A DNA stretch of 62,237 nucleotides, the filler included. It is 7 parts of 7 records of this genome, joined end to end, with 100 filler letters (N's around TTAATTAATTAA, not from the genome) between each part and the next. Parts side by side here need not be neighbours in the genome. Positions count along the whole stretch, not along the records: positions 1 to 6,875 come from SRR31147125_26957; 6 more parts are not named here. One strand, given 5' to 3'. The notes beneath the pieces were generated by a model. It did no database searches, was not told the origin of the DNA, and saw only the letters and a program-made list of their open reading frames with translations. The position numbers and the translations under genes are program-made. Positions 1 through 32,021 of the stretch are shown in pieces (within the stretch, counting starts at the first letter, position 1; each line of letters starts with the position of its first letter).

Positions 1-37
1 CCGTTTGCCCTCCGGGGAAAGGTGAATGTAAAATATT

Positions 38-2476
38 TTATCTCTTCATTACCATCACTTCATCAACTGTCAGTGTACAAGCTCCAAACTGTTCATCCAC
101 TTTTCCTGTTATGATATATGGATGATTGCGGTCAAGTATCGAACAAAATTTTCGGTATACTCTGGGAAAAAAGGTAGTTTCGATTATTCCGGTCTCATCC
201 TCAAACGTGATGAACTCCATTGGATCTCCCTTGTAGGTTGATACAACTTTGCCTGTTATCAGCAATCCAGCAACCTTCACTTGTTTCCCAGCGTAACGGT
301 TCAAATCTTTGGCTTTGATGATTCTCCGGTGTCTAAGGGTATCTGCAAACAACTCCATCGGATGCCTGTCACACAAGAAACCAAGAGCTGTAAATTCACG
401 TCTGAGACATTCTATTTTGTTTTCAGGTGGGAAGGCTGGTACTTTTGGTTCTGATTCTGAATCTCGTTTGCAGAACAAGTCCCCCTGTTTCTTTGTCTTA
501 CCTTGACCCTTTTTCCATACAGCCACCTCCCACAATAGGACTGGCCGTGGTATCTCAGGATGTAGAGCATCAAAAGCACCGGCATGTATCATGGAACGGA
601 CTTCCTCCTCATCAGGACTAACTCGACCAAGAAAGTCTTTCAGGTTCTGATATGGGTGAGATTTTCTTTCGGTGATAATCCTAGCCTGTGTATCGGCACT
701 CAGGTGTTTGATGTTCATCAGGCCAACCCTCATAGCATTACTGCTGGCAGTCCATCGGCTGTTACTCTCGTTTACATCCGGTGGCAGAATCTCCACTCCC
801 ATTCTTCTGGCCTCTGACACGTAAGCAAAGGTAGAGTAAAATCCACCCTGATTGGAAATCACTGCTGCCATGAAAGCTTCCGGATAATGTGTCTTTAAAT
901 ATGCCGCCTGAAATGAAACCCTGATATAACTAGCCGAATGAGGCTTGCAAAAGGAGTAGCCATCAAAAGACAATATCATGTCCCAGACCTGCTCAATCTG
1001 TTTATCAGTCACACCTTTTTCTCTGGAGCCTTGTGCAAAACGGTTGAAGTAATCCATCAGTTTTCGGACCTTGTCCTTGCGACTCATGACTTTTCGTAAA
1101 CCATCTGCATCGGCATGAGAAAAACCAGCCAGAGCCACAGCAGCAAGTGAGACATGTTCCTGATACACCATGATGCCGTAGGTTTCATCCAAGACCCCTT
1201 CAAGCAAGGGATGAATAGCTTCCCACGGTTCACCTTTCAGTCTGGCAAGGTATTCGTTTATCCAGCGGTTAGCGGCAGGGCGAATAATGGATGTGTGAAT
1301 CACCATGTGTTCATAGTCCCCAATACCTGATTTTTTCTGTAGCAGCTTGGTTGCAGGGGACTCTATGTAAAAACAACCCATTGTTTCACCATTTGAGACA
1401 CGGCTTTGTGTAGTACGGTCGTCCTCTGGTTCCCAATGAGTTTCGTTAAAGGTTTCACCACTGCTTTTTACTGTTTGGATGGCATCACGAATGACACCCA
1501 GACTACGATTGCCAAGCAGGTCAATTTTCAAAAGGCCGCTGTCTTCAGTACCGTCTTTCTCCCATTGAATGATCGGAACACCTTTGGGAGCTATTTCAAC
1601 TGGAACGTAATCAGTAATAGGCTGAGGAGTGATCACCACACCACCAGAATGTACAGACAGATTTCGGGGAGTGCCGATCAGTTTCTGAGCGTACCGTAAG
1701 ATCTCCGGCCACGGTTCCGGGAAATCCAGTTCTTTCAGTTGGGGCAGAGCTTTCAGGCGAGTCAGCAAGGCATCCTCGTCCGTTCCATCCATAACATTCC
1801 AGAACCATGGCAGCCGTTTGGAGATCTGCCCGATTTCACGGTCCGTCAGGCCGTAAACCTTGGCAATCTCACGAATAGCAGAACGAGGTTGCAACAACAC
1901 ATGATTGCAAACCATCGCTGCATGGCCTTTGTACTTTTCCAAGACGGCCAGTTGTACATCGTCCCGTTCGTCCCATGCAAAATCAACATCAATATCGGGA
2001 GCATCTTTTCTGCCAGGGTTCAGGAATCGCTCAAAATACAGATTGTATTTAAGTGGGCAGACGTTGGTAATTCCCAGACAATAAGCCACTATAGAGGCAG
2101 CTCCAGAACCACGCCCACAAATTCGGGGGCTGTGCTTAACGATATCTTGCACAATTAGGAAATAGGCAGAGAAACCCTTGTCACGAATGGCTGTAAGTTC
2201 ATAGTCCAGACGTTGTATCACTGCACTAGAGAGATTACTGCCGTAACGTGTACGTGCCCCTTCATAGGCTGCAGTACGAAGCTCCAGAGATGATTCAGCT
2301 TCGCTCTGTTCATTCCAGCTTGGCAGCACAAGACCAAATTCAGGACCAGTGAATTCCAGTCGTTCTGCAAGTTTGTAACTTTGCCTGATAGCATCCGGCC
2401 AGACATCAAAACGGCGGATGTACTCCATTGACGGAACCAGCCATGCATTATCAGGGGCAATATCTTTCTGTGTCAA
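38..2476 (-). CDS. dnaE2: Error-prone DNA polymerase III alpha-like subunit (DnaE2-like), C-terminal part: polymerase core, HhH, OB fold. One gene with 2451-3044, split by a frameshift near 2547
   Basis: GRGSGAASIVAYCLGIT, FERFLNP, PDIDVDF and KIDLLG catalytic motifs, YSFCKPHS, C-terminal OB (FITFEDETG), clamp-like QGDLF. This frame stays open upstream as FTKPEDYTVHRFQRAIALNTSL. Confidence 0.9.
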   Translation of the reverse strand: MTQKDIAPDNAWLVPSMEYIRRFDVWPDAIRQSYKLAERLEFTGPEFGLVLPSWNEQSEAESSLELRTAAYEGARTRYGSNLSSAVIQRLDYELTAIRDKGFSAYFLIVQDIVKHSPRICGRGSGAASIVAYCLGITNVCPLKYNLYFERFLNPGRKDAPDIDVDFAWDERDDVQLAVLEKYKGHAAMVCNHVLLQPRSAIREIAKVYGLTDREIGQISKRLPWFWNVMDGTDEDALLTRLKALPQLKELDFPEPWPEILRYAQKLIGTPRNLSVHSGGVVITPQPITDYVPVEIAPKGVPIIQWEKDGTEDSGLLKIDLLGNRSLGVIRDAIQTVKSSGETFNETHWEPEDDRTTQSRVSNGETMGCFYIESPATKLLQKKSGIGDYEHMVIHTSIIRPAANRWINEYLARLKGEPWEAIHPLLEGVLDETYGIMVYQEHVSLAAVALAGFSHADADGLRKVMSRKDKVRKLMDYFNRFAQGSREKGVTDKQIEQVWDMILSFDGYSFCKPHSASYIRVSFQAAYLKTHYPEAFMAAVISNQGGFYSTFAYVSEARRMGVEILPPDVNESNSRWTASSNAMRVGLMNIKHLSADTQARIITERKSHPYQNLKDFLGRVSPDEEEVRSMIHAGAFDALHPEIPRPVLLWEVAVWKKGQGKTKKQGDLFCKRDSESEPKVPAFPPENKIECLRREFTALGFLCDRHPMELFADTLRHRRIIKAKDLNRYAGKQVKVAGLLITGKVVSTYKGDPMEFITFEDETGIIETTFFPRVYRKFCSILDRNHPYIITGKVDEQFGACTLTVDEVMVMKR

Positions 2477-3044
2477 TCGGGACAGGGAGGTATTCAGGGC
2501 AATGGCACGTTGAAAGCGGTGGACTGTGTAGTCCTCCGGTTTGGTAAAAGCTTCCCGGTGTAGCTACAGATGTAACATCAAGCTCTTTCGCTAACAGACG
2601 CAGCTTTAGTCCACGGCCAGTGGGCTTGCGAGGCAGGGCGACAGATATGGACACCTCGCAATCCCTAAGATGACGCAGTAATGATTCGGACTGCGTTAAT
2701 ACTTGTAAGCCATCGGACAAATCCGGCAGCTTATTTTTTAATGTGAAATTATCATCACAGTGTCGGTCGGTTATCAAACGGCAAAGATTACTATAGCCTG
2801 TCATGTTTTCTACCAGACAAATTGCCCGTTCATTGCCATGAGGATCGGTTAACTCAGCCCCAACAATGGGTGTAACGCCTTCACGTTTACAGGCGTGTAA
2901 GAATGGCCAAAGTCCATACAGGTTGTCTGTGTCGGTTAGAGCCAACCTGTCATAACCACAACGTTTGGCAGTTTTGACTAACTCTTCCGGCGAAGCTGTC
3001 CCCCACATCATCGAATAATGTGAGCGGGTTGTAAGGGGAATCAT
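2451..3044 (-). CDS. dnaE2: DnaE N-terminal PHP domain (5' fragment of the frameshifted dnaE2-like gene)
   Basis: TRSHYS...LALTDTDNLYG...PIVGAEL...GYSNLCRLIT PHP pattern; ATG overlaps the stop of the upstream gene (ATGA, 3041-3044). Confidence 0.88.
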   Translation of the reverse strand: MIPLTTRSHYSMMWGTASPEELVKTAKRCGYDRLALTDTDNLYGLWPFLHACKREGVTPIVGAELTDPHGNERAICLVENMTGYSNLCRLITDRHCDDNFTLKNKLPDLSDGLQVLTQSESLLRHLRDCEVSISVALPRKPTGRGLKLRLLAKELDVTSVATPGSFYQTGGLHSPPLSTCHCPEYLPVPIDTERYCP

Positions 3045-4351
3045 TGTCTTGGTTCTTGTGTCTGAGATCTGGGGACTGATGTTTTAGGTGCTGGGGTCTT
3101 GGTTATTGGGGTTGGGGGATTGCAAGAATGGAAGTCGGTGGATGAAGCCAGTCCCAAATCCCTAGCCCCCAATCCCGATAGTGTTCGTCCCATGTTGACG
3201 GCAGAGAACCCGAAACGGTTACGAATGTTATCCATTGCCACAATAAGGTTGCTTTTGTCGTCGTCCTCTTTTCTTACATCTTCAAACAAATCCAGTTGAG
3301 GAACAGGTGGGAAAGTCAGACGGTCAACCTTGACTCTAAGATGACGAATCCGTACCCGCCTCATCCAAACCTTTTGTAAAAGCTCTCTGGCTACATCAAA
3401 CAGATGAAAGTCATCAGCAGTAGCAGGACGTAAAACAAGGTAACGAAAGATTCGTTTGCCATCTGAATAATCCAATCCGACCATAAGCCTTTTTGCTGCC
3501 AGTTGACGGTTACGAAGCTCTGAACCAACTCGTTCCACCAGTGAATATAGGATACCCTCAATTATTTGTACATCGTTGGTGTCGTTGCCAAAATGATAGT
3601 CCATCACGACTTGCGGGGCTTTGCTACCTACTGGCAAGACAGGAGAATCGTCCAACCCTCTCAGAATGGAATGAACATGGTGATGACGTTTTCCAAACAG
3701 AATTTCAAGCTGTTCAGACTCAAGATTGGCTGCTTCTCCAACACGATAAATATTCAACTCACGAAACCGAACAATGTCACGACGTTCCAGGCCTGGAATT
3801 AAGAACAAAGGTAAAGGATGCAGCAGGTCTTTGGCTTCATCACCAAGAACGATCCGTTCCCCTGTAGGCTTGACCAAACGTGAGGCAACCTTGGCCAATA
3901 GCTTATTAGACGCAACTGTCCAGATGGGGTCAAAGCCGATATCATCCTTAAAGGTTTGTCGAATCTTGCAACCAATATCCTCAGCTTTTCCATGCAAACG
4001 GGACGTTCCACTCAAGTCCACAAACAAATGCCCCTGTGTGTCCGTCTGTTCTATCAGTGGAGAATACGGCAAGGTAAGCTTGAGCATTTCCTTCATGGCT
4101 CGTTCGTAACGGTCAACATGTGGTGGCAGCACCACAGCATCATGACACCGCCTCAATGCCCGTTGCAGTGGCATTCCCTTTCTTACACCTGACTTGTAGG
4201 CTTCCTCACTATGGTCAAACACTGCTGCTCTGGTAGCTCCTTCAGGGGCAACAATTACAGGACGACCCCGTAGCCGGGTGTCCACCAACCTTTCCACCTC
4301 CACTGCAAAGTCGGCTACGTTCAGATGTAGAATATCTCGTGCCGCATCCAT
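3041..4351 (-). CDS. Y-family DNA polymerase-like protein (DinB/ImuB fold), apparently catalytically inactive
   Basis: LRGRPVIV, GVRKGMPL, NKLLAKVASRLVKPTG, little-finger region and QLDLF clamp motif; catalytic acidic residues replaced (HLNVADF; DTQGHLFVDL). Confidence 0.88.
   Translation of the reverse strand: MDAARDILHLNVADFAVEVERLVDTRLRGRPVIVAPEGATRAAVFDHSEEAYKSGVRKGMPLQRALRRCHDAVVLPPHVDRYERAMKEMLKLTLPYSPLIEQTDTQGHLFVDLSGTSRLHGKAEDIGCKIRQTFKDDIGFDPIWTVASNKLLAKVASRLVKPTGERIVLGDEAKDLLHPLPLFLIPGLERRDIVRFRELNIYRVGEAANLESEQLEILFGKRHHHVHSILRGLDDSPVLPVGSKAPQVVMDYHFGNDTNDVQIIEGILYSLVERVGSELRNRQLAAKRLMVGLDYSDGKRIFRYLVLRPATADDFHLFDVARELLQKVWMRRVRIRHLRVKVDRLTFPPVPQLDLFEDVRKEDDDKSNLIVAMDNIRNRFGFSAVNMGRTLSGLGARDLGLASSTDFHSCNPPTPITKTPAPKTSVPRSQTQEPRQ
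3044..3176. repeat. Degenerate heptamer tandem array (~11 units) facing 4 reverse-complement units
   Basis: gggactg/ggtgctg/gggtctt/ggttatt/ggggttg/ggggatt at 3044-3121, then cagtccc-aaatccc-tagcccc-caatccc at 3149-3176. Confidence 0.6.
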
Positions 4352-4353
4352 CA

Positions 4354-5175
4354 CTAGCTTCCAGCCCCCAACAACTTAACTAGTTGCTTAGCATTTTTGG
4401 GGGCTTGACCAGATACATGATTGTTGAAAAATACAGCTGCCTTTTGGGTTCGCTGCATCATACGATCGATAATCTCGACCCAGGGTTCAAGTTCTTCTTC
4501 CGAATAGTTGTAGCCGAAAGGATGCATATTCGGTTTATTCAACCAGCCATCAGCATTACGTCCATGAAAACGGATGTAGGTCAGGTCAGGATTTGTCACA
4601 ACATCCAGTGTTGGAAACAGGTGTGATAATCTAGGTTCATCAACAGCTACTAGAGTGACCTTACGTTTTTCAAGCTCGGCAAAAACTTTGTCATTAGCCC
4701 ATGAATTATGCCTGAATTCTACCGCCAAAGGTAAACCATCGAGATGATCGAGTAAAGATGCAAGATACTTCCTCTTTGATAAAGACCGGTCGAATGAAGG
4801 TGGCAATTGAATTAACACCGCCACCAACTGACCACTTTGCATCATGGGAGCTACTGCGTCTCGATATCTTACGATATTTTCCTTCCAGATTTTGGTATCG
4901 ACTTCATGAGTAAGGGTATTAGTCAATTTGGCGGTAAACAAAAAGTTTGGTGGAGCTTGCTTCCGTTGTCGGTCAATCAACTCAGGTGTAGGCATCCTGT
5001 ACCACGTGTAATTAAGCTCTACGATGGGAAACTGCTCTGCATAGCAACCTAGCATTTCGGCTTGTTTTGTCGCTGGAGGATACACTCCGGCCTCGATCCA
5101 TTCACGGTACGAATAGCCACTGCAACCAATTAGCAGGTTTGAGTGGGCAGAATTTGAATTTCGGGGCGGACACAT
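4354..5175 (-). CDS. DUF72 (YecE-like) TIM-barrel protein
   Basis: IGCSGYSY.EW, VELNYTWY, QLPPSF, AVEFRHNSW, YIRFHGRN and FFNNH motifs typical of DUF72. Confidence 0.9.
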   Translation of the reverse strand: MCPPRNSNSAHSNLLIGCSGYSYREWIEAGVYPPATKQAEMLGCYAEQFPIVELNYTWYRMPTPELIDRQRKQAPPNFLFTAKLTNTLTHEVDTKIWKENIVRYRDAVAPMMQSGQLVAVLIQLPPSFDRSLSKRKYLASLLDHLDGLPLAVEFRHNSWANDKVFAELEKRKVTLVAVDEPRLSHLFPTLDVVTNPDLTYIRFHGRNADGWLNKPNMHPFGYNYSEEELEPWVEIIDRMMQRTQKAAVFFNNHVSGQAPKNAKQLVKLLGAGS

Positions 5176-5184
5176 AATGCTTCC

Positions 5185-5781
5185 TCACAGATGACGACGT
5201 ACTTCGATGATTTTACCCAGCAATTGGGCATCTTCGGGTTTCAGGATAATAGTGTCGAAATCAGGGTTTTCCGGATGGAGTTCGATATGCTTTTTGTGCT
5301 TTTGTAACCGTTTTACGGTAGCTTCGTCACCTATTAGAGCTGCCACAATATCGCCGTTATTAGCATCGGATTGGGGGCGGACAATCACCAAATCACCAGC
5401 CAGAATACCGGCATCTTTCATGCTGTCACCACGAACTCGCAAGGCAAAGGTGTCTTCATGAAGACCTTCTTCTGAAATGGGAATGGTGCCTTCAATGTCT
5501 TCCACAGCCAAAATGGGTAGACCAGCCTGAATTTGCCCCATGATGGGTACATGATGGATTGGTGGTCTACCATCCTTTTGTTCAGGCAGACGAAAGCCTC
5601 TTGAAATGCCTTTGAGCTTCAGAATCAGGCCATCGCTCACCAGCTTATCAAGATGCTGACGGGCTGATGCTGAACTCCTGAATCCGAACTGTGACTGAAC
5701 CTCCCGAACCGTGGGTGGTGTACCAGCAAGGATTTGTTCACGAACAAAACTATAAACCTTTTCACGAGTAGATAATGCCAT
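5185..5781 (-). CDS. lexA: LexA SOS repressor
   Basis: wHTH (PPTVREV...FGFRS), Ala-Gly cleavage site (GQIQAGLP), Ser (GDSM) and Lys (ATVKRL) dyad; ATG at 5781 has an AGGAGG RBS, so the true start is downstream of the ORF-track start. Confidence 0.95.
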   Translation of the reverse strand: MALSTREKVYSFVREQILAGTPPTVREVQSQFGFRSSASARQHLDKLVSDGLILKLKGISRGFRLPEQKDGRPPIHHVPIMGQIQAGLPILAVEDIEGTIPISEEGLHEDTFALRVRGDSMKDAGILAGDLVIVRPQSDANNGDIVAALIGDEATVKRLQKHKKHIELHPENPDFDTIILKPEDAQLLGKIIEVRRHL

Positions 5782-5803
5782 ATCAAACCTCCTGAAACCA
5801 TCA

Positions 5804-5828
5804 AAACACACATTTGTGTGTTTGTCAA
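5804..5828 (-). promoter_or_regulatory. lexA promoter (-35 TTGACA) with an overlapping perfect inverted repeat; candidate LexA operator
   Basis: AAACACACA-TT-TGTGTGTTT at 5804-5823; TTGACA at 5828-5823 on the minus strand, then 17 nt, then a weak TTTGAT -10. Confidence 0.7.
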
Positions 5829-6039
5829 GATCAGGTTCATTAACCTGTTGCACAATCCGTCATTGGTTAAAAGCATTGATATTTCCTACTAAACATACCC
5901 AACCAATATGTAATCATGAAGATTCTCTGTACATATTTTGACTTTACTGAATAACATGTATAGCATACCAGTCATAAATAAGTGATTCTAAATCTGAGAA
6001 GATAATTCCTTTTCACTATTTTGTGAGGGCTTTAAAAGC

Positions 6040-6875
6040 ATGAGTAATGTTTTCCGTCTTATTGTTGTAATATTGTTTGTTTGTTTCGTAATGTCATGTG
6101 CTTCGGATGTTAGTCCGGGTTCATTTAGCCTCAGTTTTGTTTGGGATGATCCACCACCTGCGGACAAGTCAGCTTTGGGTATTTGGGGCAAAGTCGAGCA
6201 GGATGGACTTCAGGTCGCTATCAGCAAGATCAAGCCTTATGCAAATGGAGCGGCACTAGACTTTAACAATGTTCCGAATGGCTCTGGTTTGGTAGTTACA
6301 ATCGAAATCCGCGAAAACACTAAATCAGATGGACGAACTTTATATTTCGGTAAATCTAAACCTTTCGAGCTTAAAGCAGGTGAACACACCTCAGTTGAAG
6401 TTGCTTTATCCCTTACTTCCACTCCAACTACCTCTGTCGATATTGATGGTGATACAGATAGTGAATCTGACGGAGGAACTCCTGTTGATCGTGCTTCTGT
6501 CTGGATTGTTACAAAAGATAATGATGGCAAGTTTCAGAAAGTTGATTATACCAACAATATTGAAGTGGCATTATCGTTAGCCAAACCCAACCACTGCGAT
6601 GATCCTTGTACTGTGATTGTATCGAATACATCCGATTTCACTTCCCTTGTTTCCACATTGCCTTTACTGAAGGATTTGGATACAGATGGTGAACGTTACA
6701 TCTTATCAAGCTGGGATCTTAATTTAGGAGTACCTGATAATGAGGGAGTCAGGACGGTTTATGCAAAGTTTCGTAACGAGTATGACTACGAATCAGGGGC
6801 AGAAACCGCTCAAGTGGTTATAGATCGTCAACCTCCTGATGTAGCGTCAGGAGCAGTTTCACCTGCTTATACCAA
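6040..6875 (+). CDS. Putative large lipoprotein/surface protein, truncated at contig end
   Basis: Signal peptide ending VMS-C; beta-rich sequence with W.L....G.RTVYAKFRN and IDRQPP Ig-like motifs. Confidence 0.6.
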
Positions 6876-7072: not shown

Positions 7073-7447
7073 TTAATCCAGTTTTTTAATTATTTTGTCA
7101 TGATTCCACCCTAACGGGGTCTCAATTTCATACGTTTCAACATTATTAAGAATTGCAAACTGTTCAGAAGAAATACCAGAACCTGAAAAAGTGGTCTTAT
7201 TAATTCTAATATTTTCCACGTCATCGGCAATAATCGGGGTGCGTAAATCACTTTCGTTATGCCCAAACATTAGGTTATTAATTGCAATGTTTTTCACATG
7301 TCGTATAAAAAGAACAGAAGAAGGCAGGTTGCCCCAAACAGTAGGTTGCGGATAGCCTTTTTCATCTTCCGAAACTCCACTTAAATCAGGAATAAAATCA
7401 CCATCGTGTAACCCACCATTGTTGAACAACTGGCAATTCGTAAGCAT
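7073..7447 (-). CDS. C-terminal fragment of the GH28-like protein (frameshift near 7492)
   Basis: YPQPTVWGNLPSSVLFIRHVKNI tail; one extra T at AATTTTCG joins it in frame with 7447-8583. Confidence 0.75.
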   Translation of the reverse strand: MLTNCQLFNNGGLHDGDFIPDLSGVSEDEKGYPQPTVWGNLPSSVLFIRHVKNIAINNLMFGHNESDLRTPIIADDVENIRINKTTFSGSGISSEQFAILNNVETYEIETPLGWNHDKIIKKLD

Positions 7448-8583
7448 TATATTTTCGATATAATATCCGGGAATTGCAGTAATTGAGCTCGAAAATTGCC
7501 GGTATTGCGGGCCACAATATTGCTGATATTTATGTTTCGCATTTTCCCAACTTTTGGTTCAGGTGCACTTTCGGTATGCTTTCTGGCGCGGTTTCCCAGC
7601 CTAATGTACAGCGGGCATTCAGTACCCTCAATTGTAATATTGTTAATGCTAACGCCTTCCATAGTTCCTCCGTCAACAATTTCCAAAGATATTCCAGTAA
7701 TACCGTTTGGTGGCGTGTCGAAAAACGGTTTTGTTTTGCTACGACTGGGTTTTATAACGCAATTGCTAATGCTGATATTTTTAAATCCTCCGGTTGATTC
7801 GGTTCCTGCTTTTATGGCATTACAAAAACTCGACACAATACAATTCGTAATCACAACATCTTCGGTAGCAGCTGCTCCGGTGCTTTTTAAAGTTATGCCG
7901 TCATCATCCGAATCAAAAATAGAATTTGAAAGTACAAATCTCCGGCATCCGTCAATATCAATGGCATCATTATTCCGGTTCGAATGGTTGTAAACCTCTA
8001 CCCTGTTTACAATTACATCTTCGCAATTCAAATAGTGCTGATTCCAAATCCCGGAATTCATCATTTTTATTCCTTCCACCCGCACATTTTTACAGGAAAT
8101 GAACAGGATATTGCGTGGACGTCCATCGCGGTCGCTGCCAAGAAGTTCCGGCACCGGTTTTTGTTGTGCTCCGTTTCCGTCGATAGTTCCCAGTCCGGTT
8201 GTGGCAATATTCGATGCTCCTTCAGCATAAATAAGGGCAAACCATCCACCAGGATCTTTTTGCGAACGGTACTCGGGTTGCGGTTGCCTCGGAAAATCGG
8301 CATGGTCGGTGCTGGCCAGCAAAACTGCCCCCATTTCGAGGTGCAATTCAACATTGTCTTTCAGTAAAACTGTTCCGCTTTTAAATGTACCCGGAGGAAT
8401 AACTACTTTCCCGCCTCCATTTTCGTTACAAGTTGTAATGGCCTGGTTTATGGTTTTGGTACAGAGGGTTTGCCCATCAGCAACAGCTCCAAAATCAAGA
8501 ATATTATAAACGGATTTTTGGCTTGCAAAAACTGAAAAACTCAAAATTATCAGTAAAACCGAGGAGATTATTTTTCTAATCAT
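7447..8583 (-). CDS. Glycoside hydrolase family 28 / pectin-lyase-fold (polygalacturonase-like) protein
   Basis: Signal peptide, YNILDFGAVADG, NNDAIDID and SDDDGITLKS motifs, beta-helix repeats. Confidence 0.88.
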   Translation of the reverse strand: MIRKIISSVLLIILSFSVFASQKSVYNILDFGAVADGQTLCTKTINQAITTCNENGGGKVVIPPGTFKSGTVLLKDNVELHLEMGAVLLASTDHADFPRQPQPEYRSQKDPGGWFALIYAEGASNIATTGLGTIDGNGAQQKPVPELLGSDRDGRPRNILFISCKNVRVEGIKMMNSGIWNQHYLNCEDVIVNRVEVYNHSNRNNDAIDIDGCRRFVLSNSIFDSDDDGITLKSTGAAATEDVVITNCIVSSFCNAIKAGTESTGGFKNISISNCVIKPSRSKTKPFFDTPPNGITGISLEIVDGGTMEGVSINNITIEGTECPLYIRLGNRARKHTESAPEPKVGKMRNINISNIVARNTGNFRAQLLQFPDIISKI

Positions 8584-8595
8584 AGTATTAATATT

Positions 8596-9246
8596 TTATT
8601 GATTCGATCTTTTAATTAAGGCAAAAGTAATGGCAAGGTGTGCAGCATAGTAGGTTGGCAAAATCAAATAATTCAGGTTGGTGTAGCCAACAAATTCTTT
8701 AAAAGAAATTATTGTGTCAGAAAATAAAACCAGTGCAATTCCAAAAGAATAAGCCCATCGAACTACCGCATTTGTTTTCAGTCCAAGTGCTGCCCCGAGC
8801 GAAATACAGGAAATCAAAAGGTAAATCAAAACAGCTATTTTCATCACAGCTCCATCAATTGCGGGGAAGAGCGTGAGAAAATAAAAGGCCAGAAAAGCGA
8901 TTAACAATACTCCGGTAAAAACTTTGTTGATTTTCCCGTTAAACAAGGCAAAAGCGAGGTAGCCAACATGAGCAACAAAATACAATGCTATTCCGGTAAC
9001 AAACATCCCAGAATCTCCCTTCATATTCGATAAAAACCAATCGCCTGCAATGGAAAAAGCAAAGGCTCCGATTATCATCCATACATTTTTATTTTGTTTT
9101 GGATTCAGGAAGAAAAGAAACAAGAGGATTAAAATACCAGCACCTGCTGTTCCCGATTTGAAGAAAAATCCAAACCCGTTTAATGCCAGATAAGCTAAAA
9201 CGACCGGAATAAGTAGTAATAAATATTTCAAATGATTCTTATTCAT
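8596..9246 (-). CDS. YhhN/lysoplasmalogenase-family membrane protein
   Basis: Multiple TM helices; FSIAGDWFL, FVAHVGY, FSDTII and TYYAAH motifs. Confidence 0.8.
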   Translation of the reverse strand: MNKNHLKYLLLLIPVVLAYLALNGFGFFFKSGTAGAGILILLFLFFLNPKQNKNVWMIIGAFAFSIAGDWFLSNMKGDSGMFVTGIALYFVAHVGYLAFALFNGKINKVFTGVLLIAFLAFYFLTLFPAIDGAVMKIAVLIYLLISCISLGAALGLKTNAVVRWAYSFGIALVLFSDTIISFKEFVGYTNLNYLILPTYYAAHLAITFALIKRSNQ

Positions 9247-9271
9247 AATGCCAAAGTTTTTTGTTAATTAT

Positions 9272-11674
9272 CTATTTTGAAGGCAGCTCCAGTTCCTGAA
9301 AATAGTCAGAACCATACCCACCCCCTTTGTTGCGGGCTAACCAAAGCCGGTAATTTAGATTTTCGGTGGGAGCAATGTATCTGTAGTTAATTAAATCTGT
9401 TGCTGTGAGAACAATAACTTCGGGCATTCCATCTTCGGCGGTTCTTTGTACTACCACTTCATCACGAAAATCGCCATACAAATCAGCGGTCATTAAAACT
9501 CTGCTGTTTGGAATAGTATTTGGTTCAACTCCCGGCACTTCAACCACTTCTTTCCCATTGAATTTTCCCACGGCGTGTCCTCCTTTCATAAGAAGTTCGC
9601 GGGTTGGGCTCCCGTCCCATTCAAAGGGTTTATAACTTGGAAAAGGTTCAATCAGCTTTTCTCCTTTTGCTGAAAAAAGCACGATATCGGGCTTCCATCC
9701 GTTGTGGCTGGCAAGGCACTCTATTCCGGGAGAACCATCCCAAATATCGGCCGCCCAGCCAACATGACCATGTACCCATCGGGGATCATCTGCTCTGTTT
9801 TCTTTCCAGATTACCTCGCCATTATTGGCATCAACCATATAAACACCTGCGTGGGCATTCGACTCCACAACATAATAAACTTCCAGTCCGGGGCGCTCTG
9901 GTAAAAAGTCGTGAATCCTGACTTTATCGGGGTGCTGCCGGTAAATAGACCAGCGCATTGTTCCATCGTTGTTTAAGCATGTCGTTCCGTTAAATACTTC
10001 TTGCTTACCATCAAAATCAATATCGTAAACTTCAATTTTATGTGCCCCGCTTCCGTTGGTTTCAGCAAAACTATTGAACTGCCAGAGCTTATTTAAATCC
10101 GCATCGAAAGCCACCAAAACCTCATTTTCGTACAAGCCGGTTTGGGTAACAATTGCCGGGTTTTCACCATCGAGATATGCAATAGACATATGTATTCTGG
10201 TTGATGAACGCATATTGTCTGTAGCCATTTCGGGCCATGGAGTTTTGTTCTTTACTTCTCCGGTCATTCCGTCGAGAATGGCAAGGTAAACCGCATTGTC
10301 GATCTGTATCCTGGCAATTACTTCTGCTTTGCCATCGCCATCCATATCCCAAATATTATAGGCTACGTTACTTCCGCTACCATAACAATATTCGTGCTCG
10401 CTAATGTCTTTTCGCCACATGGAACGTCCGTACGACGAAAATGCTTCAATCTGAACCGGAAGTTCTGGTTTTTGCGATTCCTCGTGGTTTCCATTGTATA
10501 AACGGGCAACACAATCGAGGCTGCCATCTCCGTTTAAATCGCCAAAAACTGGGGCAACTTCGCCGCCTTGTTTACATACTGGTTTAAATTTTACAATTGC
10601 AGTTGAGTTCTCCTCCTCAACATTTGTACTTGCCCAGTTTGATCTCCGTCCTTCTTTTCCTTGCTTGTCAACTGTTTTTACGTAATAATGATACCTTTTC
10701 CCTATTTCAAGATTTTTATCGATAAAAGTTGTTGAACCGGAAATTGGTACTTTATTGATTAAAAAACCTGAATGATTGCGTGAATCGGCGCGGTAAACAT
10801 TAAATCCGGTGGTTTCTGTCTCTTTGCGAAGAAGTGCCCAACTTAAAAATACATTCCCATTTCCTGTTGAAACAGCACAAAGTTTTCGGTTTTGAATATG
10901 CCAGTCAATACCTTCGGGCTGGCGAATTGGACGAAAACCAGCATCGGGATGACGAATACCGGCAGAAAATTCAGATTGATTTCCGCAACGCAAATATTCT
11001 TTACTCCGTGCCCACGAACCTCCCATGCGGCTGCCTTCGAGTAGCGGTACATCAATAATTCTATATTTATAGGGAGTAACTGCTGGATCGAGCAGGTTAA
11101 TGGTGAGGTGCCAGGCATTGCCAGCCATGTTATATAATCCGTAACCGTTTGGTTTGTTTGAGCGTGCCGGCTGCAGATAATCCTGCCACTGATTAAACTG
11201 ACGTGATTCATTTGCATCAAAGTTGGCCCTATTCTTTCCAATTTTATCTCCCCAGGGATAAATTTCATTCTCCAATCCGCCTCTTGATGCCCACTCAAAT
11301 TCAATGGTTGTGGGTAAACGGTACACTTTCCCTTCTTGTTCCGAAAGCCATTTTACATACGCTTCCACATCGTAACGGTTAACAAAAATTACCGGGTAAT
11401 CTTCTTTCCCTTCAGGAATTATTCCATCCTTCCAATGTAGTGGAATAGGGAATCCGGTAGCATCGGTAAATAATTTATATTCCGCGTTTGTAACCTTATG
11501 GTCCAGCATTTCAAAATCGTCGACTCTAACCATGGGACGATCTGGATTTGTAACCACATCGCCACTTTTAAAGGAGTCTCCTTTAATAAAAACAAATCCT
11601 TCAAGTTTAGATGTTTGTGCCGAAAGGATATTTATTAACGAAATTAACGATAGAAAAAGCAAAAAGCGTTTCAT
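9272..11674 (-). CDS. Fusion of an FGE-sulfatase-like domain with a rhamnogalacturonan lyase family 11-like protein
   Basis: N-term VTNAEY/YPVIFV/RLPTTIEFEWASRGG/NGYGLYNMAGN/GGSW/GFR; then VFLSW..GFNVYR Fn3-like domain and Ca-binding propeller repeats (GDLNGDG, DMDGDGKAEV, AYLDGENP, PERPGLEV). Confidence 0.8.
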   Translation of the reverse strand: MKRFLLFLSLISLINILSAQTSKLEGFVFIKGDSFKSGDVVTNPDRPMVRVDDFEMLDHKVTNAEYKLFTDATGFPIPLHWKDGIIPEGKEDYPVIFVNRYDVEAYVKWLSEQEGKVYRLPTTIEFEWASRGGLENEIYPWGDKIGKNRANFDANESRQFNQWQDYLQPARSNKPNGYGLYNMAGNAWHLTINLLDPAVTPYKYRIIDVPLLEGSRMGGSWARSKEYLRCGNQSEFSAGIRHPDAGFRPIRQPEGIDWHIQNRKLCAVSTGNGNVFLSWALLRKETETTGFNVYRADSRNHSGFLINKVPISGSTTFIDKNLEIGKRYHYYVKTVDKQGKEGRRSNWASTNVEEENSTAIVKFKPVCKQGGEVAPVFGDLNGDGSLDCVARLYNGNHEESQKPELPVQIEAFSSYGRSMWRKDISEHEYCYGSGSNVAYNIWDMDGDGKAEVIARIQIDNAVYLAILDGMTGEVKNKTPWPEMATDNMRSSTRIHMSIAYLDGENPAIVTQTGLYENEVLVAFDADLNKLWQFNSFAETNGSGAHKIEVYDIDFDGKQEVFNGTTCLNNDGTMRWSIYRQHPDKVRIHDFLPERPGLEVYYVVESNAHAGVYMVDANNGEVIWKENRADDPRWVHGHVGWAADIWDGSPGIECLASHNGWKPDIVLFSAKGEKLIEPFPSYKPFEWDGSPTRELLMKGGHAVGKFNGKEVVEVPGVEPNTIPNSRVLMTADLYGDFRDEVVVQRTAEDGMPEVIVLTATDLINYRYIAPTENLNYRLWLARNKGGGYGSDYFQELELPSK

Positions 11675-11703
11675 TTTAGTTTAGTTTTATTGTTCGTATA
11701 AAT

Positions 11704-12480
11704 TCATTGTTTCCAATTAAGCGTATTCCGTATAATCTGCACAAAATTTTCATTTAAGAAATCGGCACTTTGATGGCCTGGCTGATAGTAAAACACCCAA
11801 CCATCACCGGTTTTCTGATACCAGCCCGATGTGGGTTGCATTAACTGATTATCTTCAGCAATAAAACCGAAAAGTATTTTTTTCTTATTAATATCTGCAT
11901 AATGCTGATTGACAAAAATCTCTGTATCAAGCAAATCAAAAGCCTGATATTCTCCGTTTAACTCTTCGGAATAATCGCTTTGAAAATGTACACGTTTATT
12001 GTACGAGATTTTATGGGTTGTAATAAAATGATTTGGCGATAAATTCACCAGCGTATGGGTTGTATTCTGTAATACATTCCATCCGTATTGTTCTTTTTTC
12101 GGGTATAATTTAATGCCTAAAAACTCCAGCCATGCGCGATTCTTCCTTTTTGCAGAAGCGATACCGTGGTGTAGCACAATTAATGTTCCTCCACTATTCG
12201 CATAATTAATCAGGGCCTTTTCTGTTTTTTCATTTAAAGTTTTGTGCAGGTACATAAATACAAAATCGTATCCTTGCAGATCTGAGCTAAGGTTTTCTTG
12301 TCCAACACTGTCAATTTTATACTTACTCTCACTATTTATTTGTTGAGCAAGTGTATGCATTTGTGGCCATTCATCGGCAACAATCAGAATTTTACTTTTT
12401 TCTTTCTGATTGCAGGAAACAGATAGAAAAGTACAAACGACAAAAATTGCAAACAATAATATTTGTTTTATAATTTTCAT
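11704..12480 (-). CDS. ThuA-like (class I glutamine amidotransferase-like) lipoprotein
   Basis: Lipobox SVSC; GGTLIVLHH; GDGWVFYYQPGH. Confidence 0.75.
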   Translation of the reverse strand: MKIIKQILLFAIFVVCTFLSVSCNQKEKSKILIVADEWPQMHTLAQQINSESKYKIDSVGQENLSSDLQGYDFVFMYLHKTLNEKTEKALINYANSGGTLIVLHHGIASAKRKNRAWLEFLGIKLYPKKEQYGWNVLQNTTHTLVNLSPNHFITTHKISYNKRVHFQSDYSEELNGEYQAFDLLDTEIFVNQHYADINKKKILFGFIAEDNQLMQPTSGWYQKTGDGWVFYYQPGHQSADFLNENFVQIIRNTLNWKQ

Positions 12481-12902
12481 TTTGAACTATTTATAGTGAT
12501 ACTGCAATTGTACTTCCCGCTTTCTAATACAACAGAGGAGATATTGTTCTGAATTTTAAATCTTTCCTTTCCAAGAAAATATTCTGTAGTTCCCGCAGGC
12601 AAGATAACTTCAGCCTCAATACCAACCGGAATTTCGAGAGCCATTTCCATTTTGTCACCATTTAATTCCCAATTGCAAGACAACTTCCCAAAAGGTGTTT
12701 CTTTAAATGTTTTTGACCAGGTAACACCTTGAGGGATTTGGGGCTGAATTATCACTTTCCTGTACATGGGAACATCTTCTGCCGGGCGGATTCCTCCAAT
12801 AGCCTGATAAAACCACGAGCCAATTCCGTTGTAGCAGTTGTGTATCCGGCTTCGGTGTCCGTTCCAGTGTTCCCAGGTGGTGGTTGCTCCGTTGTCAATC
12901 AT
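12477..12902 (-). CDS. C-terminal fragment of GH78 alpha-L-rhamnosidase (frameshift near 12927)
   Basis: GATTTWEHW, SRIHNCYNGIGSWFY; one extra A in the A6 run restores MLKKRDYPGFLYMIDNG. Confidence 0.85.
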   Translation of the reverse strand: MIDNGATTTWEHWNGHRSRIHNCYNGIGSWFYQAIGGIRPAEDVPMYRKVIIQPQIPQGVTWSKTFKETPFGKLSCNWELNGDKMEMALEIPVGIEAEVILPAGTTEYFLGKERFKIQNNISSVVLESGKYNCSITINSSK

Positions 12903-15172
12903 GTACAGGAAGCCAGGATAATCTCTTTTTTAAGCATGGAATACATCAAGTCAACTTCCTGATTTTCTACAACCCACTGCGTAATTACGGGCAATCCTAC
13001 CAGTCCGCAAGCCAAATGTCCATTCCAATTTGTATTTGTTTCCTTATAAAATGCTTGTGTTACTTTTTCTGTCAGATGTTTGGGGACTACTCCTGAAATC
13101 ATCGGGAAAGCCAAATCAATCTGAGTGCCGGTTCCATAAGTATTATTCTGTTCCGAGAAATAAACCTTATGAACTTTGTTTTGCTTTTGTTTCTTTTTGA
13201 TTTTGTATTGACGTGCATCTTCAGGTTTTGCAAGCACTTGAGCTATTTTTTGCATCTGATCGAAACAAACAGCCAGGTACGAATTATTTACTACATCAAC
13301 CGAAGCCTCAGCAGTTTGGTCAATCCCTTCGGGCGTTGCCCAGTCGCCCAAAAACCAGTTACGGTACTCAGTATTTGGCCAGGGTTTTAATAAGCCATCA
13401 ACGGTGTACTTATCAACATATTCCAACCATTTTTGCATTACCGGGTAATTCTTTTGCAAAACCAGTGTATTGCCATAATTCAAAAAAGTATTCCAGCTTG
13501 CCGAAATAATAAAACCGCACCAGTACGGGCCTCCGCCAGCGTTGTACGGATTTGGGGCAACATGCGGCATTCCTCCGTCTTCACGGATTACATCGGTCCA
13601 GGCCTGAAGCCAGTTGGTATAAAGCGGTCCCAGGTTAAACATAGTTTGTGCGGTTACCGTAGAAGCGTTTCCATCGCCGCCATAACCAAGTCGTTCAATT
13701 TGAGGGCAATCAACCAAATCTCCGCCAATACACAAACAACGAAGCGTATAGAAAAGCATGTCGTGAATTTGGTTTAAATCCGTGTCGGAACATTCGAAAC
13801 CCGATGCCAGTTCATAATCAGTATGAATGAGATAAGCACTGATAGAATCAGGATAAGGCATCTCTTCCAAACCGCTCATTCTGATATATCGGAAACCGTG
13901 GTAATTGAATTTGTTTTTAAAGACCTCGGGCGATTTCCCCGAAGCAAGATATTTATCAAACTGGTTCCTGTCGTTAAACATTCCTTTTTCCGTAAGATGA
14001 TCGCAGTATTCCAGGGTAACTTCCTGCCCTTTTTGTAAATCACTGAAATGAACTTCCACCCAGCCTGTTAGGTTTTTCCCCATATCGATAAGAAAGGTAT
14101 CTTTTGCCAGCTTTAAAATAGCCGCCGGATGCAGTGTGTCCTGAATCTTGTTTAGTTCCACCATTTGCGGGCTAAGCTCATGTTTCGGAATATCAATTAC
14201 TGACACTGCCTTCCAACTCCTGTCGTCTGAATTATCAGTAATCAAATCAGTTTTTGCCAGCTCACCATTTACTATTTCTCCGCCAAACCGGTGTGGTTTC
14301 CAGTTGCCATGCCTCGTATAACTGCTGGTTCGTCCCATCCACGATGAATCTGTTTTTAATACAATTTCTCTTTTATTATTCTGAACCTTTTCGAGTTGTG
14401 CTTTTACTACAGGCGCATTATTAACCACACCCGGAAGTCCTTCTGTATACCAACCACTTCCCAGCCACAGGATCAGATCGTTATAGCCTTCTTTTACGTA
14501 AGATGTGATGTCATACGTATTCGCCAACGAACGCTTGTTAAACTGTGAGACAGCCGGCGTTAGTACTCCGTCTCCAACCTTTTGTCCATTCACATAAACT
14601 TCATGATATCCCAGAGAATTAACATGAAGAATTAGCTTTTTACCGGATTCGTTTAATTCAAAAGACTGATACAATTGAGGGCATTCGCGATAACCTGCAT
14701 TGGTATTAAAAGCTATGTATTCGGCCTGCCAGTCAGTCTCATTTAACAATCCAATTCCGAATTTCGCTGGTTCGCTCCAGTCCGAGACGTTTCCTGACTC
14801 GTCCCAAATTCGTACTTTCCAATAGCCGTGAGAACCTGATTTAAGTTTACTGCCTTTATAACAAATCCAAACCGATGATTCTGATTCAGTTTTTTCCGAA
14901 TCCCAAAGGTCGGCTTTGCTTTCTTTTAACAACTTCAACTCACTTGCTAGCAGAATTTGATAAGCCGCCTGTTTCGTACCATTTCGTTCACTTTTTATTT
15001 TCCAGCTAAAGCGGGGTGTTGTTTTATCAATTCCCAGTGGGTTTTCCAGGTTTTCGCACCGAAGATCGTATATATCGGATCTTTCTTCGTTTTTACATGA
15101 ACTGATCGAAAAAGCAAAAACAATTTGCCATAAAACCATCCATCCGATAAAATATTTAGTCTTTCTAATCAT
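12899..15172 (-). CDS. Alpha-L-rhamnosidase, family GH78 (main part)
   Basis: LRCENLENPLGID..PRFSW, DMGKNLTGW, FNYHGFRY, DCPQIERLGYGGDG and FLGDWA motifs. Confidence 0.92.
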   Translation of the reverse strand: MIRKTKYFIGWMVLWQIVFAFSISSCKNEERSDIYDLRCENLENPLGIDKTTPRFSWKIKSERNGTKQAAYQILLASELKLLKESKADLWDSEKTESESSVWICYKGSKLKSGSHGYWKVRIWDESGNVSDWSEPAKFGIGLLNETDWQAEYIAFNTNAGYRECPQLYQSFELNESGKKLILHVNSLGYHEVYVNGQKVGDGVLTPAVSQFNKRSLANTYDITSYVKEGYNDLILWLGSGWYTEGLPGVVNNAPVVKAQLEKVQNNKREIVLKTDSSWMGRTSSYTRHGNWKPHRFGGEIVNGELAKTDLITDNSDDRSWKAVSVIDIPKHELSPQMVELNKIQDTLHPAAILKLAKDTFLIDMGKNLTGWVEVHFSDLQKGQEVTLEYCDHLTEKGMFNDRNQFDKYLASGKSPEVFKNKFNYHGFRYIRMSGLEEMPYPDSISAYLIHTDYELASGFECSDTDLNQIHDMLFYTLRCLCIGGDLVDCPQIERLGYGGDGNASTVTAQTMFNLGPLYTNWLQAWTDVIREDGGMPHVAPNPYNAGGGPYWCGFIISASWNTFLNYGNTLVLQKNYPVMQKWLEYVDKYTVDGLLKPWPNTEYRNWFLGDWATPEGIDQTAEASVDVVNNSYLAVCFDQMQKIAQVLAKPEDARQYKIKKKQKQNKVHKVYFSEQNNTYGTGTQIDLAFPMISGVVPKHLTEKVTQAFYKETNTNWNGHLACGLVGLPVITQWVVENQEVDLMYSMLKKEIILASCT

Positions 15173-17672: not shown

Positions 17673-18557
17673 TTATTTTCTGACAGATCTGGCTTGATCA
17701 TCGGCATGATAAGAAGACCTTACCAGCGGGCCAGATTCACAGTGTTTAAATCCTTTTTTCAAGGCTATTTGTTTTAATTCTGCAAACTCTTTTGGATGCC
17801 AGTATTTTTGAACTGGTAAAAATAGTGCCTGTTTTTTTGTCGGTGGGAGATATTGACCGATAGTTAGAATATCCACGTTTACTGCAAGAAGATCATCCAT
17901 AGCTTTTTTGATTTCATTTTTTGTTTCTCCAAAACCAGGCATAATGCTGGATTTTGTCAACGACCAAAGTTCAATTTCTTTGGCATAACGTAAAAAACTT
18001 AATGAACGATCATATGTGGCCTTTGAGCGTATGCGCTTTGAAAATCGTTTCACAGTTTCAATGTTATGGTTGAAAATATCCGGTTTCGCTTCCATAACAG
18101 TTTTAATATTGTCATAAACGCCGCCCATGTCAGAGGGGAGAACTTTAACGGTACATGGGGGAAATTTTATTCAGATTGCCTGGATTATGACGGCAAAGAT
18201 ACAGCCTCACCATCAATGGTCGTTCCTGGCCACTGCCGTAATGACAGCAGGACGTAAGCCCATTTGAGCCACGGATTTTGCTCCCCGTTCCGGTTTATGC
18301 GTATCCAGATCTGTTGGTTTACCTGACTTGACAGCACAAAATCCGCACGACCGTGTACAGGTATCACCCAGTATCATGAATGTTACTGTCTTGCGTTGCC
18401 CCCAACATTCGTGAATATTTGGATATTTTGCCTCTTCACAAACAGTATGCATATTTTGACGACGCATGATTTCCTATAAAGACATGACATTTTCAGTCCC
18501 GGTCAGCTTTGTTTTTAACCATTCTGGCTTGTGGGTTATCTTTTGAATTTCAATCAT
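17673..18557 (-). pseudogene. lipA: Lipoyl synthase pseudogene
   Basis: [29 protein letters not shown] and [10 protein letters not shown] present, but with an in-frame TAG at codon 28, CEEAKCPN changed to CEEAKYPN, and further frameshifts/stops near 18170-18215. Confidence 0.85.
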
Positions 18558-18713
18558 TAATAATACTCCCGGAAAGTATGAAAGAACGATATCTGAAGGG
18601 AAAACCGAAAAAATAGATAGTCTATTCCTGGCTGGCACTAGCCGGGAACTGGAGTATTCAATATGACACGAAAACCATTTGTGCGATATGATTTAGCTGA
18701 GAAAGGGATTTCT

Positions 18714-21037: not shown

Positions 21038-21137
21038 NNNNNNNNNNNNNNNNNNNNNNNNNNNNNNNNNNNNNNNNNNNNTTAATTAATTAANNNNNNN
21101 NNNNNNNNNNNNNNNNNNNNNNNNNNNNNNNNNNNNN
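21038..21137. other. Artificial contig spacer
   Basis: N44-TTAATTAATTAA-N44. Confidence 0.99.
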
Positions 21138-30698: not shown

Positions 30699-30954
30699 AC
30701 CAGCTGAATATTTTCGTTACCCCCAGGTTCTTCGAAATAGAATGACAATTTAATCATTACCATAGACGGACCTTTTTCTCAAATAACAAAAAGTACTATT
30801 TCATCCCGCCAACATTTGACCACCCATAAAAAAATCTCGTGACATTTTCTTACCAACACAAAAATATTTATTCTTTGAATAGGGGTTATAACGTTCTTAA
30901 TTGTATTATAAAAGAATATAGATTGTAATTAATTAAAAAACTTTCGAGGTCAAA

Positions 30955-32001: not shown

Positions 32002-32021
32002 TTCAAAGGGAGATCAAAAAG

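Follow-up and report, generated by a model that had tools for sequence, protein, structure and literature searches.

In many bacteria, mutagenesis induced by DNA damage is driven by mutasomes built around DnaE2, and knowing what these contain helps to explain how the supply of mutations is controlled. In the canonical cassette, imuA-imuB-dnaE2 (imuC), ImuB is an inactive Y-family scaffold and ImuA is RecA-like. Here we analyze a stretch of 62,237 nucleotides (parts of seven records of one genome joined end to end, filler included; the whole stretch is called the window below) that carries, near its beginning, lexA, a gene for a DUF72 protein, a gene for an inactive Y-family polymerase homolog (iPolY), and a gene for a second DnaE (dnaE2). 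We consider this locus likely to be a LexA-headed, ImuA-less translesion or mutagenesis operon of the gbDinB2-like iPolY-DnaE2 kind, extended by a conserved accessory gene, that for DUF72.

The closest described systems are those in which inactive Y-family homologs are coupled with DnaE2, often behind lexA (Timinskas and Venclovas 2019, PMC6511836). According to the searched text and supplements of that paper, imuA is absent from both operon and genome, and RecA is proposed to replace ImuA. The searched portion of a 2026 survey (PMC12926913) uses the name DnaE2B-iPolY-RecA and describes a "gbDinB2" type of iPolY with a wide phyletic spread. Table S4 of PMC6511836 has 18 gbDinB2-like rows, 16 of which have no inserted gene before iPolY. 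The order LexA->iPolY->DnaE2 is printed there for Geobacter bemidjiensis, Pelobacter, Desulfuromonas, Geoalkalibacter, Syntrophobacter, and two Nitrospira; in Geobacter sp. M18, iPolY is followed by two inserted genes, and the spirochaetes and one Nitrospira have the operon without lexA. The order LexA->{1}->iPolY->DnaE2 is given for two Desulfobacterales, Desulfococcus oleovorans Hxd3 and Desulfocapsa sulfexigens, and no name is given there for the inserted gene.

The window locus is assigned from its sequence to this published kind (gbDinB2-like iPolY-DnaE2, or DnaE2B-iPolY-RecA), and over the first ∼49 aligned residues its iPolY is ∼57% identical, counted by eye, to the one printed for D. 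oleovorans Hxd3. The original prediction had put the locus forward as the best candidate for an under-described system in the window, but the ImuA-less lexA-iPolY-dnaE2 arrangement, including the Desulfobacterales form with one inserted gene, is already in print in the searched parts of PMC6511836 and PMC12926913. The core of the locus is thus known, and what is added is a conserved, putatively LexA-controlled, single-copy DUF72 inside the cassette. The terms "DUF72" and "PF01904" are absent from the searched text and supplements of both papers, and within open-access text (subscription journals and figures lie outside this scope) DUF72 and LexA occur together only in PMC11791011. Within the same scope, ImuB, DnaE2, and DUF72 coincide in a single paper, on Rv0004, where the apparent DUF72 is probably DUF721. 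We infer that the unnamed inserted gene of D. oleovorans and Desulfocapsa sulfexigens may be the same as the DUF72 gene.

Gene content of the operon

The genes of the operon are as follows.

5185..5853, minus strand: lexA, longest open reading frame (ORF), start GTG 5853, 222 aa (Pfam LexA_DNA_bind PF01726 and Peptidase_S24 PF00717)
5185..5781, minus strand: lexA, probable coding sequence, start ATG 5781, ∼198 aa (from the extent of the TIGR00498 match and AGGAGG)
4354..5175, minus strand: DUF72 (PF01904), TIM-barrel protein, 273 aa (Pfam E 2.8e-61)
3041..4354, minus strand: iPolY, catalytically inactive Y-family polymerase homolog (gbDinB2-like), 436-437 aa (Pfam IMS and IMS_C)
2546..3044, minus strand: dnaE2, N-terminal part, frame 1 (ORF 2451..3044, 197 aa; PHP domain, E 1.5e-21)
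38..2542, minus strand: dnaE2, remainder, frame 2 (listed ORF from TTG 2476, 38..2476, 812 aa; DNA_pol3_alpha, finger, HHH_6, and OB domains)

All four genes lie on the minus strand. The tight coupling claimed by the original prediction is confirmed in the sequence at each of the three junctions: a 9-nucleotide (nt) gap separates the TGA of lexA from the ATG of DUF72, DUF72 and iPolY meet at TAG-TG-ATG, and iPolY and dnaE overlap at ATGA.

The lexA product is a LexA by membership, with both the winged-helix DNA-binding domain and the S24 self-cleaving domain present (Pfam), and it scores 183.5 bits against the LexA equivalog model TIGR00498 (cut-off 110.95). Its translation shows what we take to be the A-G cleavage site and the Ser and Lys motifs of LexA. 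The TIGR00498 match begins only at residue 30 of the 222-aa ORF, and an AGGAGG at 5788-5793 stands seven nt ahead of ATG 5781. Because of these two features, the start of lexA is more likely ATG 5781 than 5853 or a position near 5830.

The cassette is without imuA, as predicted: Pfam finds no RecA-like or DUF4113 domain and no ImuA-like gene in the operon or among 55 ORFs of at least 90 aa selected from the window. In the genomes of five relatives (G001-G005), the matches of the ImuA model are only to proteins of RecA size or to others, they score 24-47 bits (cut-off 150), and none of these sub-cut-off matches adjoins a Y-family gene. Besides the cassette iPolY, each of the five genomes carries one DinB-like gene. 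G002, which is the genome of the window's nearest relative (locus L035), has in addition a second lexA-DUF72-iPolY-dnaE cassette on another contig; apart from this second cassette, no ImuB-like third Y-family gene was found in G001-G005.

Conservation of the gene order in relatives

A pattern scan with one genome per species gave 563 loci that encode iPolY relatives; the best 80 of these were retained and searched by tblastn with the five protein pieces of the window. Most of the 80 come from metagenome-assembled genomes (MAGs) labelled Desulfobacterales or "delta proteobacterium," and the nearest relatives of the window are MAGs labelled Myxococcota. DUF72 lies directly upstream of iPolY on the same strand in 65 of the 72 loci evaluable for this (at least 1500 nt upstream), in one of them (L020) only as a C-terminal fragment; the other 7 have no DUF72 there. 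On the same strand as iPolY, lexA is found upstream in 64/67 loci (at least 2600 nt upstream) and dnaE downstream in 68/70 (at least 1500 nt downstream). Among the 59 loci evaluable on both sides, 47 have all four genes in the same order and strand, and 7 have lexA, iPolY, and dnaE without DUF72. The four-gene arrangement is far beyond chance, and the neighborhood survey proposed with the original prediction thus finds the lexA-DUF72-iPolY-dnaE order conserved. The distance between DUF72 and iPolY is only 1-3 nt in a number of relatives.

In a quick maximum-likelihood tree of iPolY (79 sequences, with L035 and L062 omitted as fragmentary), the 8 loci without DUF72 need 5 changes, of which at least 4 are forced by well-supported branches.

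A cultured, non-pathogenic isolate, Desulfosarcina ovata, also carries the whole cassette (L093; NZ_AP021877.1, 59962-65737), on a mobilizable plasmid of 136 kb. The plasmid annotation calls the four products LexA, DUF72 domain-containing protein, hypothetical protein, and DNA polymerase III subunit alpha, and genes for a TraA relaxase and an IS200/IS605 transposase lie beside the cassette. Because it is carried on a mobilizable plasmid near these genes, the cassette can travel.

The inactive Y-family protein and the second DnaE

When aligned to Pol IV (7yll_A), the window iPolY reads N12, A14, and Q107/G108/H109 at the positions that we presume to be those of the catalytic carboxylates: "HVDMDAF" of 7yll_A becomes "HLNVADF," and "SIDEAY" becomes "TQGHLF." N12, G108, and H109 are invariant in the 14 sequences of one alignment (A1) and the 24 of another (A4). 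These replacements, and their invariance in relatives, agree with the claim that the Y-family polymerase is dead.

The protein has a clamp-type motif, QLDLF, at residues 353-357, the QLxLF form of which is conserved among relatives. Near its C terminus, inspection reveals a motif like the RecA N terminus (RecA-NT-like), VAMDNIRNRFGFSAVNMGR, and a C-terminal "A(M/L)DxIRxRFG..A...GR" is conserved in iPolY relatives. In the portion of PMC6511836 consulted, this motif matches the RecA-NT-like column printed for the Desulfococcus oleovorans protein, and it resembles the RecA N termini in the supplement of that paper as well as that of G001. [quoted passage not shown] The motif is followed in the window by a P/T-rich, low-complexity tail of ∼40 aa, which most relatives are without. 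No ImuB-C domain was found in iPolY, for which Pfam gives only IMS and IMS_C.

Directly downstream of iPolY, the window carries a second DnaE, though frameshifted. This DnaE reaches the cut-off of neither the DnaE1 nor the error-prone polymerase model; the latter matches in two parts, at 498.5 and 64 bits against a cut-off of 939, and is the top NCBIfam match of the N-terminal part, and the DnaE1-model match ends at position 1062 of 1146. A separate DnaE1 scoring >1450 bits is present in each of G001-G005, with the cassette DnaE at 501-587 bits in G001, G002, G003, and G005. In G004 (locus L045) no dnaE lies beside iPolY, and merely a 248-bit fragment occurs elsewhere. The cassette polymerase is a second and shorter DnaE.

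Family, fold, and distribution of DUF72

The window protein matches PF01904 at 207.8 bits (cut-off 25.3) over profile positions 1-216 of 217, that is, over the full length, and it matches PDB 1vpq (TM1631) with an E value of 7e-44. Among the members of this family is, we presume, YecE of Escherichia coli. An AlphaFold2 model of the protein (pLDDT, the predicted local distance difference test score, 87.3) gave in a fold search a Z score of 31.0 to 1vpq_A, with a root-mean-square deviation of 2.2 over 251 residues. Below 1vpq there is a broad shelf of xylose-isomerase-like TIM barrels, as follows.

MbnB: Z 15.2
Sugar epimerases: Z 13-14
Endonuclease IV: Z 12.0-12.9
UVDE (2j6v): Z 12.0

The searched text of PMC11791011 states that DUF72 is a TIM barrel "closely related to UVDE"; in our fold search this kinship is only partly borne out, with UVDE one of many equally distant TIM barrels. 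The stretches GxSG, VELN, F.K, Q.P.SF, EFRH.SW, VDEP, RFHGRN, and FNN are common to the window protein and two solved DUF72 proteins, a pattern that fits an enzyme better than an inert scaffold. Among the residues invariant in an alignment of DUF72 sequences (A3) are E53, E153, D179, H156, H204, and H253, in the numbering of that alignment.

The cassette copy is the sole DUF72 in four of the five relatives' genomes (G001, G003, G004, and G005), and G002 has two, one per cassette. A specialized paralog was considered as an identity for the cassette DUF72 and is ruled out by this sole-copy status. In five genomes with a DUF72-less cassette, the family went undetected in four and left only a 38-position remnant in the fifth; all are MAGs, for which absence is not proven. 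The family is widespread in organisms without dnaE2, being present in 9 of 14 control genomes, archaea included. Three plasmid neighborhoods of DUF72 were examined, and that on Agrobacterium pAt shows no repair context. On a Paraburkholderia plasmid (L094; NZ_CP017564.2, 69777-71689), DUF72 is two genes away from a short "DNA ligase" gene on the opposite strand, an isolated case of another neighbor related to DNA.

The literature on the family yielded no experimentally demonstrated DUF72 activity; a nuclease role of TM1631 has been predicted computationally (PMC3828134, as far as its consulted text goes). In the searched text of PMC11791011, a 2025 study by the authors of PMC6511836, DUF72 is enriched near LexA-linked PolB2 mutasome operons.

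A putative operator ahead of lexA

The region upstream of lexA contains the following elements.

5823..5828, minus strand: TTGACA, -35-like hexamer, read from the sequence
5805..5822, no strand assigned: 18-bp perfect palindrome AACACACAAATGTGTGTT, a putative operator for LexA that takes up the 17-nt spacer separating the -35 hexamer from the -10 hexamer
5800..5808, minus strand: TGT+TTTGAT, putative extended -10-like element, read from the sequence

At up to three mismatches, AACACACAAATGTGTGTT is the only such site in the window (0.15 expected by chance). A like palindrome stands ∼40 nt ahead of lexA, at equal distance, in L001, L035, and L062, and in L062 both arms are altered symmetrically (ACACTCA...TGAGTGT). 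Such a pattern is consistent with an operator bound by a dimeric repressor, for which LexA itself is the simplest candidate. The cassette lexA encodes the sole LexA in G001, G003, and G004. In G002, the 14-nt core of the palindrome has 6 hits compared with 2 for the control, and the only window-like sites are those at lexA; its 16-nt form, searched genome-wide, is confined to the cassette in G002 and missing from G001, and no regulon emerges from these searches.

The prediction that lexA heads a self-regulated operon is consistent with this conserved palindrome, which overlaps the promoter-like site ahead of lexA. The further claim, that the four genes stand behind one promoter, holds in part: the promoter-like site is present, and a scan found no terminator-like sites on the minus strand in 1-6100, but a consensus promoter scan called no promoter upstream of lexA (the second hexamer fails the scan rule), and the promoter is a putative one.

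Most Desulfobacterales loci have TTTACATTGACATTTACATT ahead of lexA instead of the palindrome of the window (L004, L005, L007, L010, L012, L021, L022, L028, L032, L046, L048, L063, L069, L073, L074, L077, L078, L080, and others). TTTACATTGACATTTACATT consists of three tandem TTKACA hexamers, the middle one being the -35 consensus, and it may be a different operator for LexA proteins that are 35-40% identical to that of the window. Tandem GAACC / TGACACC repeats precede lexA in L014-L017, L024, L026, L051, L055, L059, and L060 and are found between DUF72 and iPolY in L036, L038, L045, L053, L064, and L074. Because these repeats precede lexA in some loci and iPolY in others, they suggest a second regulated promoter for iPolY-dnaE2 where a 140-680-nt spacer separates DUF72 from iPolY. 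Some of these spacers contain inverted-repeat elements, and in one a VapBC-like pair seems apparent from translation.

The frameshift in dnaE2 and other features of the window

The original prediction treated dnaE as one intact gene and overlooked a 2-nt deletion that splits it into two ORFs, 2451..3044 (197 aa) and 38..2476 (812 aa).

2546..2549, minus strand: frameshift site, a T-rich run with 2 nt missing in comparison with L035, L001, and L002 (DNA alignment A2)

In these three closest loci, both parts of dnaE share one frame, as judged from search coordinates. Because of this, the shift is private to the window and not programmed, and a programmed frameshift, which was considered for dnaE2, is ruled out by the single-frame state of the three relatives compared at the site. 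Outside the deletion both dnaE frames are open, with 79-89% conservation relative to close relatives. Contigs of one DNA run (X1, word depth ∼4-5), which may stem from the sample of the window itself, span 2000-2468 and 2546-3200; positions 2469-2545 are uncovered, and these contigs have no bearing on the deletion.

Similar splits or truncations affect at least five more genes of the 62-kb window.

12477-15172: alpha-L-rhamnosidase, split into two ORFs
24057-25227: NqrB-like gene (nqrB), split into two ORFs
Among 28722-29929, 17673-18128, 20517-21089, and 54639-55358: NqrF-like gene, split into two ORFs
Among the same four intervals: partial radical-SAM, alpha/beta-hydrolase, and Mem_trans ORFs, truncated

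These genes would point either to an assembly rich in indel errors or to a genome with many pseudogenes.

Elsewhere in the window, 59388-60256 encodes a RES-domain toxin together with an antitoxin of the Xre/MbcA/ParS type; such type II toxin-antitoxin pairs are known. The regions 7447-15172, 18663-20333, 30141-37239, 50325-54625, and 55431-58088 have mixed gene content: pectin and rhamnogalacturonan degradation, a sulfatase, a protein with a type IX secretion system sorting domain, an extracytoplasmic function sigma factor/FecR pair with TonB-dependent receptors bearing CarboxypepD_reg domains, and phosphotransferase system components with a PRD antiterminator. Such content is unusual for relatives labelled Myxococcota.

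Proposed function and alternative explanations

In the working model for the operon, LexA would bind at its own promoter, to the 18-bp palindrome occupying the spacer. RecA filaments are known to trigger self-cleavage of LexA after DNA damage, and in this locus the same event would derepress the operon. The dead Y-family scaffold, through its clamp and RecA-NT-like motifs, would bring DnaE2 to the β clamp and to RecA, as the literature on related proteins leads one to expect, and DnaE2 would there perform error-prone synthesis. DUF72 would be co-expressed as an enzyme and not as a substitute for ImuA or ImuB-C.

That DUF72 belongs to the module is suggested by its occurrence in the same slot across the tree, its status as the sole genomic copy in four of five genomes, and its apparent absence from most of the genomes whose cassette is without it. 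It is probably a LexA-controlled accessory enzyme that would act on damaged DNA. The leading candidate for its activity, which we offer tentatively, is that of a metal-dependent enzyme acting on damaged DNA, for example in lesion incision or in cleaning ends for the polymerase. The original prediction had likewise suggested that DUF72 may sense or process lesions, which is a conjecture at this stage. In the consulted part of a Caulobacter study, DnaE2 acts together with nucleotide excision repair, and coupling to excision would make mechanistic sense if DUF72 incises or cleans DNA. The nuclease idea draws on genomic context and on the published modelling of TM1631. More doubtful is a wider proposal, in which DUF72 would be a lesion- or DNA-end-processing enzyme repeatedly recruited to unrelated mutasomes (DnaE2-iPolY and PolB2), prepare the substrate of DnaE2, and be expressed here only with LexA and the polymerases. 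If this were true, one transcript would link incision or end cleaning to gap filling of the error-prone kind, and a widespread orphan family with three crystal structures would gain its first function.

DUF72 might instead be an obligate structural subunit of the mutasome, replacing ImuA or the missing ImuB-C and bridging iPolY and DnaE2. Its gene does lie between lexA and iPolY, a position like that of imuA in canonical cassettes, its junctions with both neighbors are tight in the window and it is within 1-3 nt of iPolY in a number of relatives, the iPolY beside it has no ImuB-C domain, and the cassette copy is the only one in most of the relatives' genomes. An obligate subunit is nonetheless improbable: nearly all of the published gbDinB2-like rows (16/18) are without an inserted gene before iPolY, 7 of 72 loci are without DUF72, with at least four losses, the stretches shared with solved DUF72 proteins are kept, as in an enzyme, and the family is common in organisms that have no dnaE2. 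For the same reasons (most published operons without the inserted gene, the repeated loss, and the retention of the conserved residues of the family), DUF72 is not a stand-in for ImuA or a replacement for ImuB-C, and to describe it as occupying the imuA slot, as the original prediction did, is misleading.

It is likewise unlikely that DUF72 is a passenger in the lexA transcript, a TIM-barrel enzyme of small-molecule or peptide chemistry with no role in damage tolerance. The nearest folds outside the family (MbnB and the sugar epimerases) are not nucleases, one of three plasmid neighborhoods is without repair context, and the gene has been lost repeatedly, all of which a passenger would explain; a passenger would not be expected to keep the same slot in 65 of 72 loci from distant lineages, to be the sole genomic copy and yet be placed under lexA, or to be missing from the genomes with DUF72-less cassettes (four of five, with a remnant in the fifth). 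The independent enrichment of DUF72 beside PolB2 mutasome operons, reported in the searched text of PMC11791011, also argues against a passenger.

Another possibility concerns the window copy alone, namely that its cassette is decaying and non-functional, with a real frameshift in dnaE2 and a locus that no longer supports mutagenesis. Among the loci compared, only the window has the 2-nt deletion, and the copy of L035 is likewise broken (a 1.5-kb insertion encoding an ISL3-family transposase interrupts its iPolY at L035:8648-10160) while the genome keeps its second cassette. Decay is quite conceivable, although we do not favor it: other window genes (rhamnosidase, nqrB, and others) are split or truncated alike, the deletion falls within a homopolymer-like T-run, and the remainder of both dnaE frames is open and conserved. 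Because other genes are split alike and the T-run is homopolymer-like, an assembly error is suggested, and we lean toward it as the origin of the deletion, with a real pseudogene as a serious alternative.

Several observations weigh against the preferred interpretation of the locus as a LexA-controlled, ImuA-less mutagenesis operon with DUF72 as an accessory enzyme. DUF72 has been lost from the cassette at least four times in the iPolY tree, and because of these losses it appears dispensable for the core; many loci have a 140-680-nt spacer between DUF72 and iPolY. MbnB and the sugar epimerases outscore endonuclease IV and UVDE, such that nucleases are not favored by the fold search. The palindrome was not seen upstream of recA in G001 or G002, and its 14-nt core has 2 hits in G001 compared with 2 for the control, though this genome has only the cassette LexA. 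Because it is absent ahead of recA and its core is not enriched in G001, the palindrome would be at most an operator for this operon, with putative LexA binding. The ImuA model stays below its cut-off in all 14 control genomes, including that of Caulobacter, which we take to have ImuA; because of this failure in the controls, the ImuA negative in the relatives' genomes is weak. The ImuA, ImuB, and RecA searches covered the window ORFs and the genomes of relatives, not the whole genome from which the window comes. The dnaE2 of the window is broken and the nearest relative has the ISL3 insertion in iPolY; because of this, the window copy of the cassette may be non-functional.

The presence of DUF72 in this cassette and its enrichment near PolB2 operons together provide recurrent contextual evidence for a family with structures since 2004-2005. 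Since the cassette is carried on a plasmid of the cultured Desulfosarcina ovata, the question of what DUF72 does is approachable at the bench.

Comparison with known systems

Like the canonical imuA-imuB-dnaE2 cassette, the window operon is SOS-linked, combines a dead Y-family scaffold with an error-prone C-family polymerase, and is alike in gene order, one gene preceding that of the Y-family protein. It differs in having DUF72 instead of the RecA-like ImuA, in a Y-family protein without ImuB-C, and in a DnaE that scores under the cut-off of the error-prone model (498.5 + 64 versus 939 bits). The operon lexA-imuB-C-polY of Geobacter sulfurreducens, as given in the searched parts of PMC6511836, is also a translesion module of a deltaproteobacterium that is co-transcribed with lexA and has no ImuA, but its Y-family polymerase is active, its ImuB-C is standalone, and DnaE2 is absent.

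The PolB2 mutasome operons of archaea and bacteria share with the window the proximity of DUF72 to a damage-inducible, LexA-linked translesion polymerase module, whereas their polymerase is of family B, their partners are iRadA and PPB2, and the searched text of PMC11791011 does not connect DUF72 to DnaE2 operons. At the protein level, the window DUF72 is a clear relative of the solved structures TM1631 (1vpq) and EF0366 (1vpy/1ztv), with an E value of 7e-44 and a Z score of 31; UVDE and endonuclease IV have the same xylose-isomerase-like TIM barrel (Z 12-13) but are not the nearest folds.

The closest match overall is to the gbDinB2-like iPolY-DnaE2 systems. The window operon shares with them an inactive Y-family homolog that bears both a clamp motif and a RecA-NT-like motif, a second DnaE directly after it, lexA at the head, and the lack of ImuA, ImuB, and ImuB-C in the operon, and both occur in deltaproteobacterial lineages. 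The window differs in its frameshifted dnaE2 and in the extra P/T-rich tail of ∼40 aa on its iPolY. It differs above all in the inserted gene, which goes without name or comment in the searched text and supplements on the published systems and which here encodes DUF72, found at this position in 65 of 72 loci.

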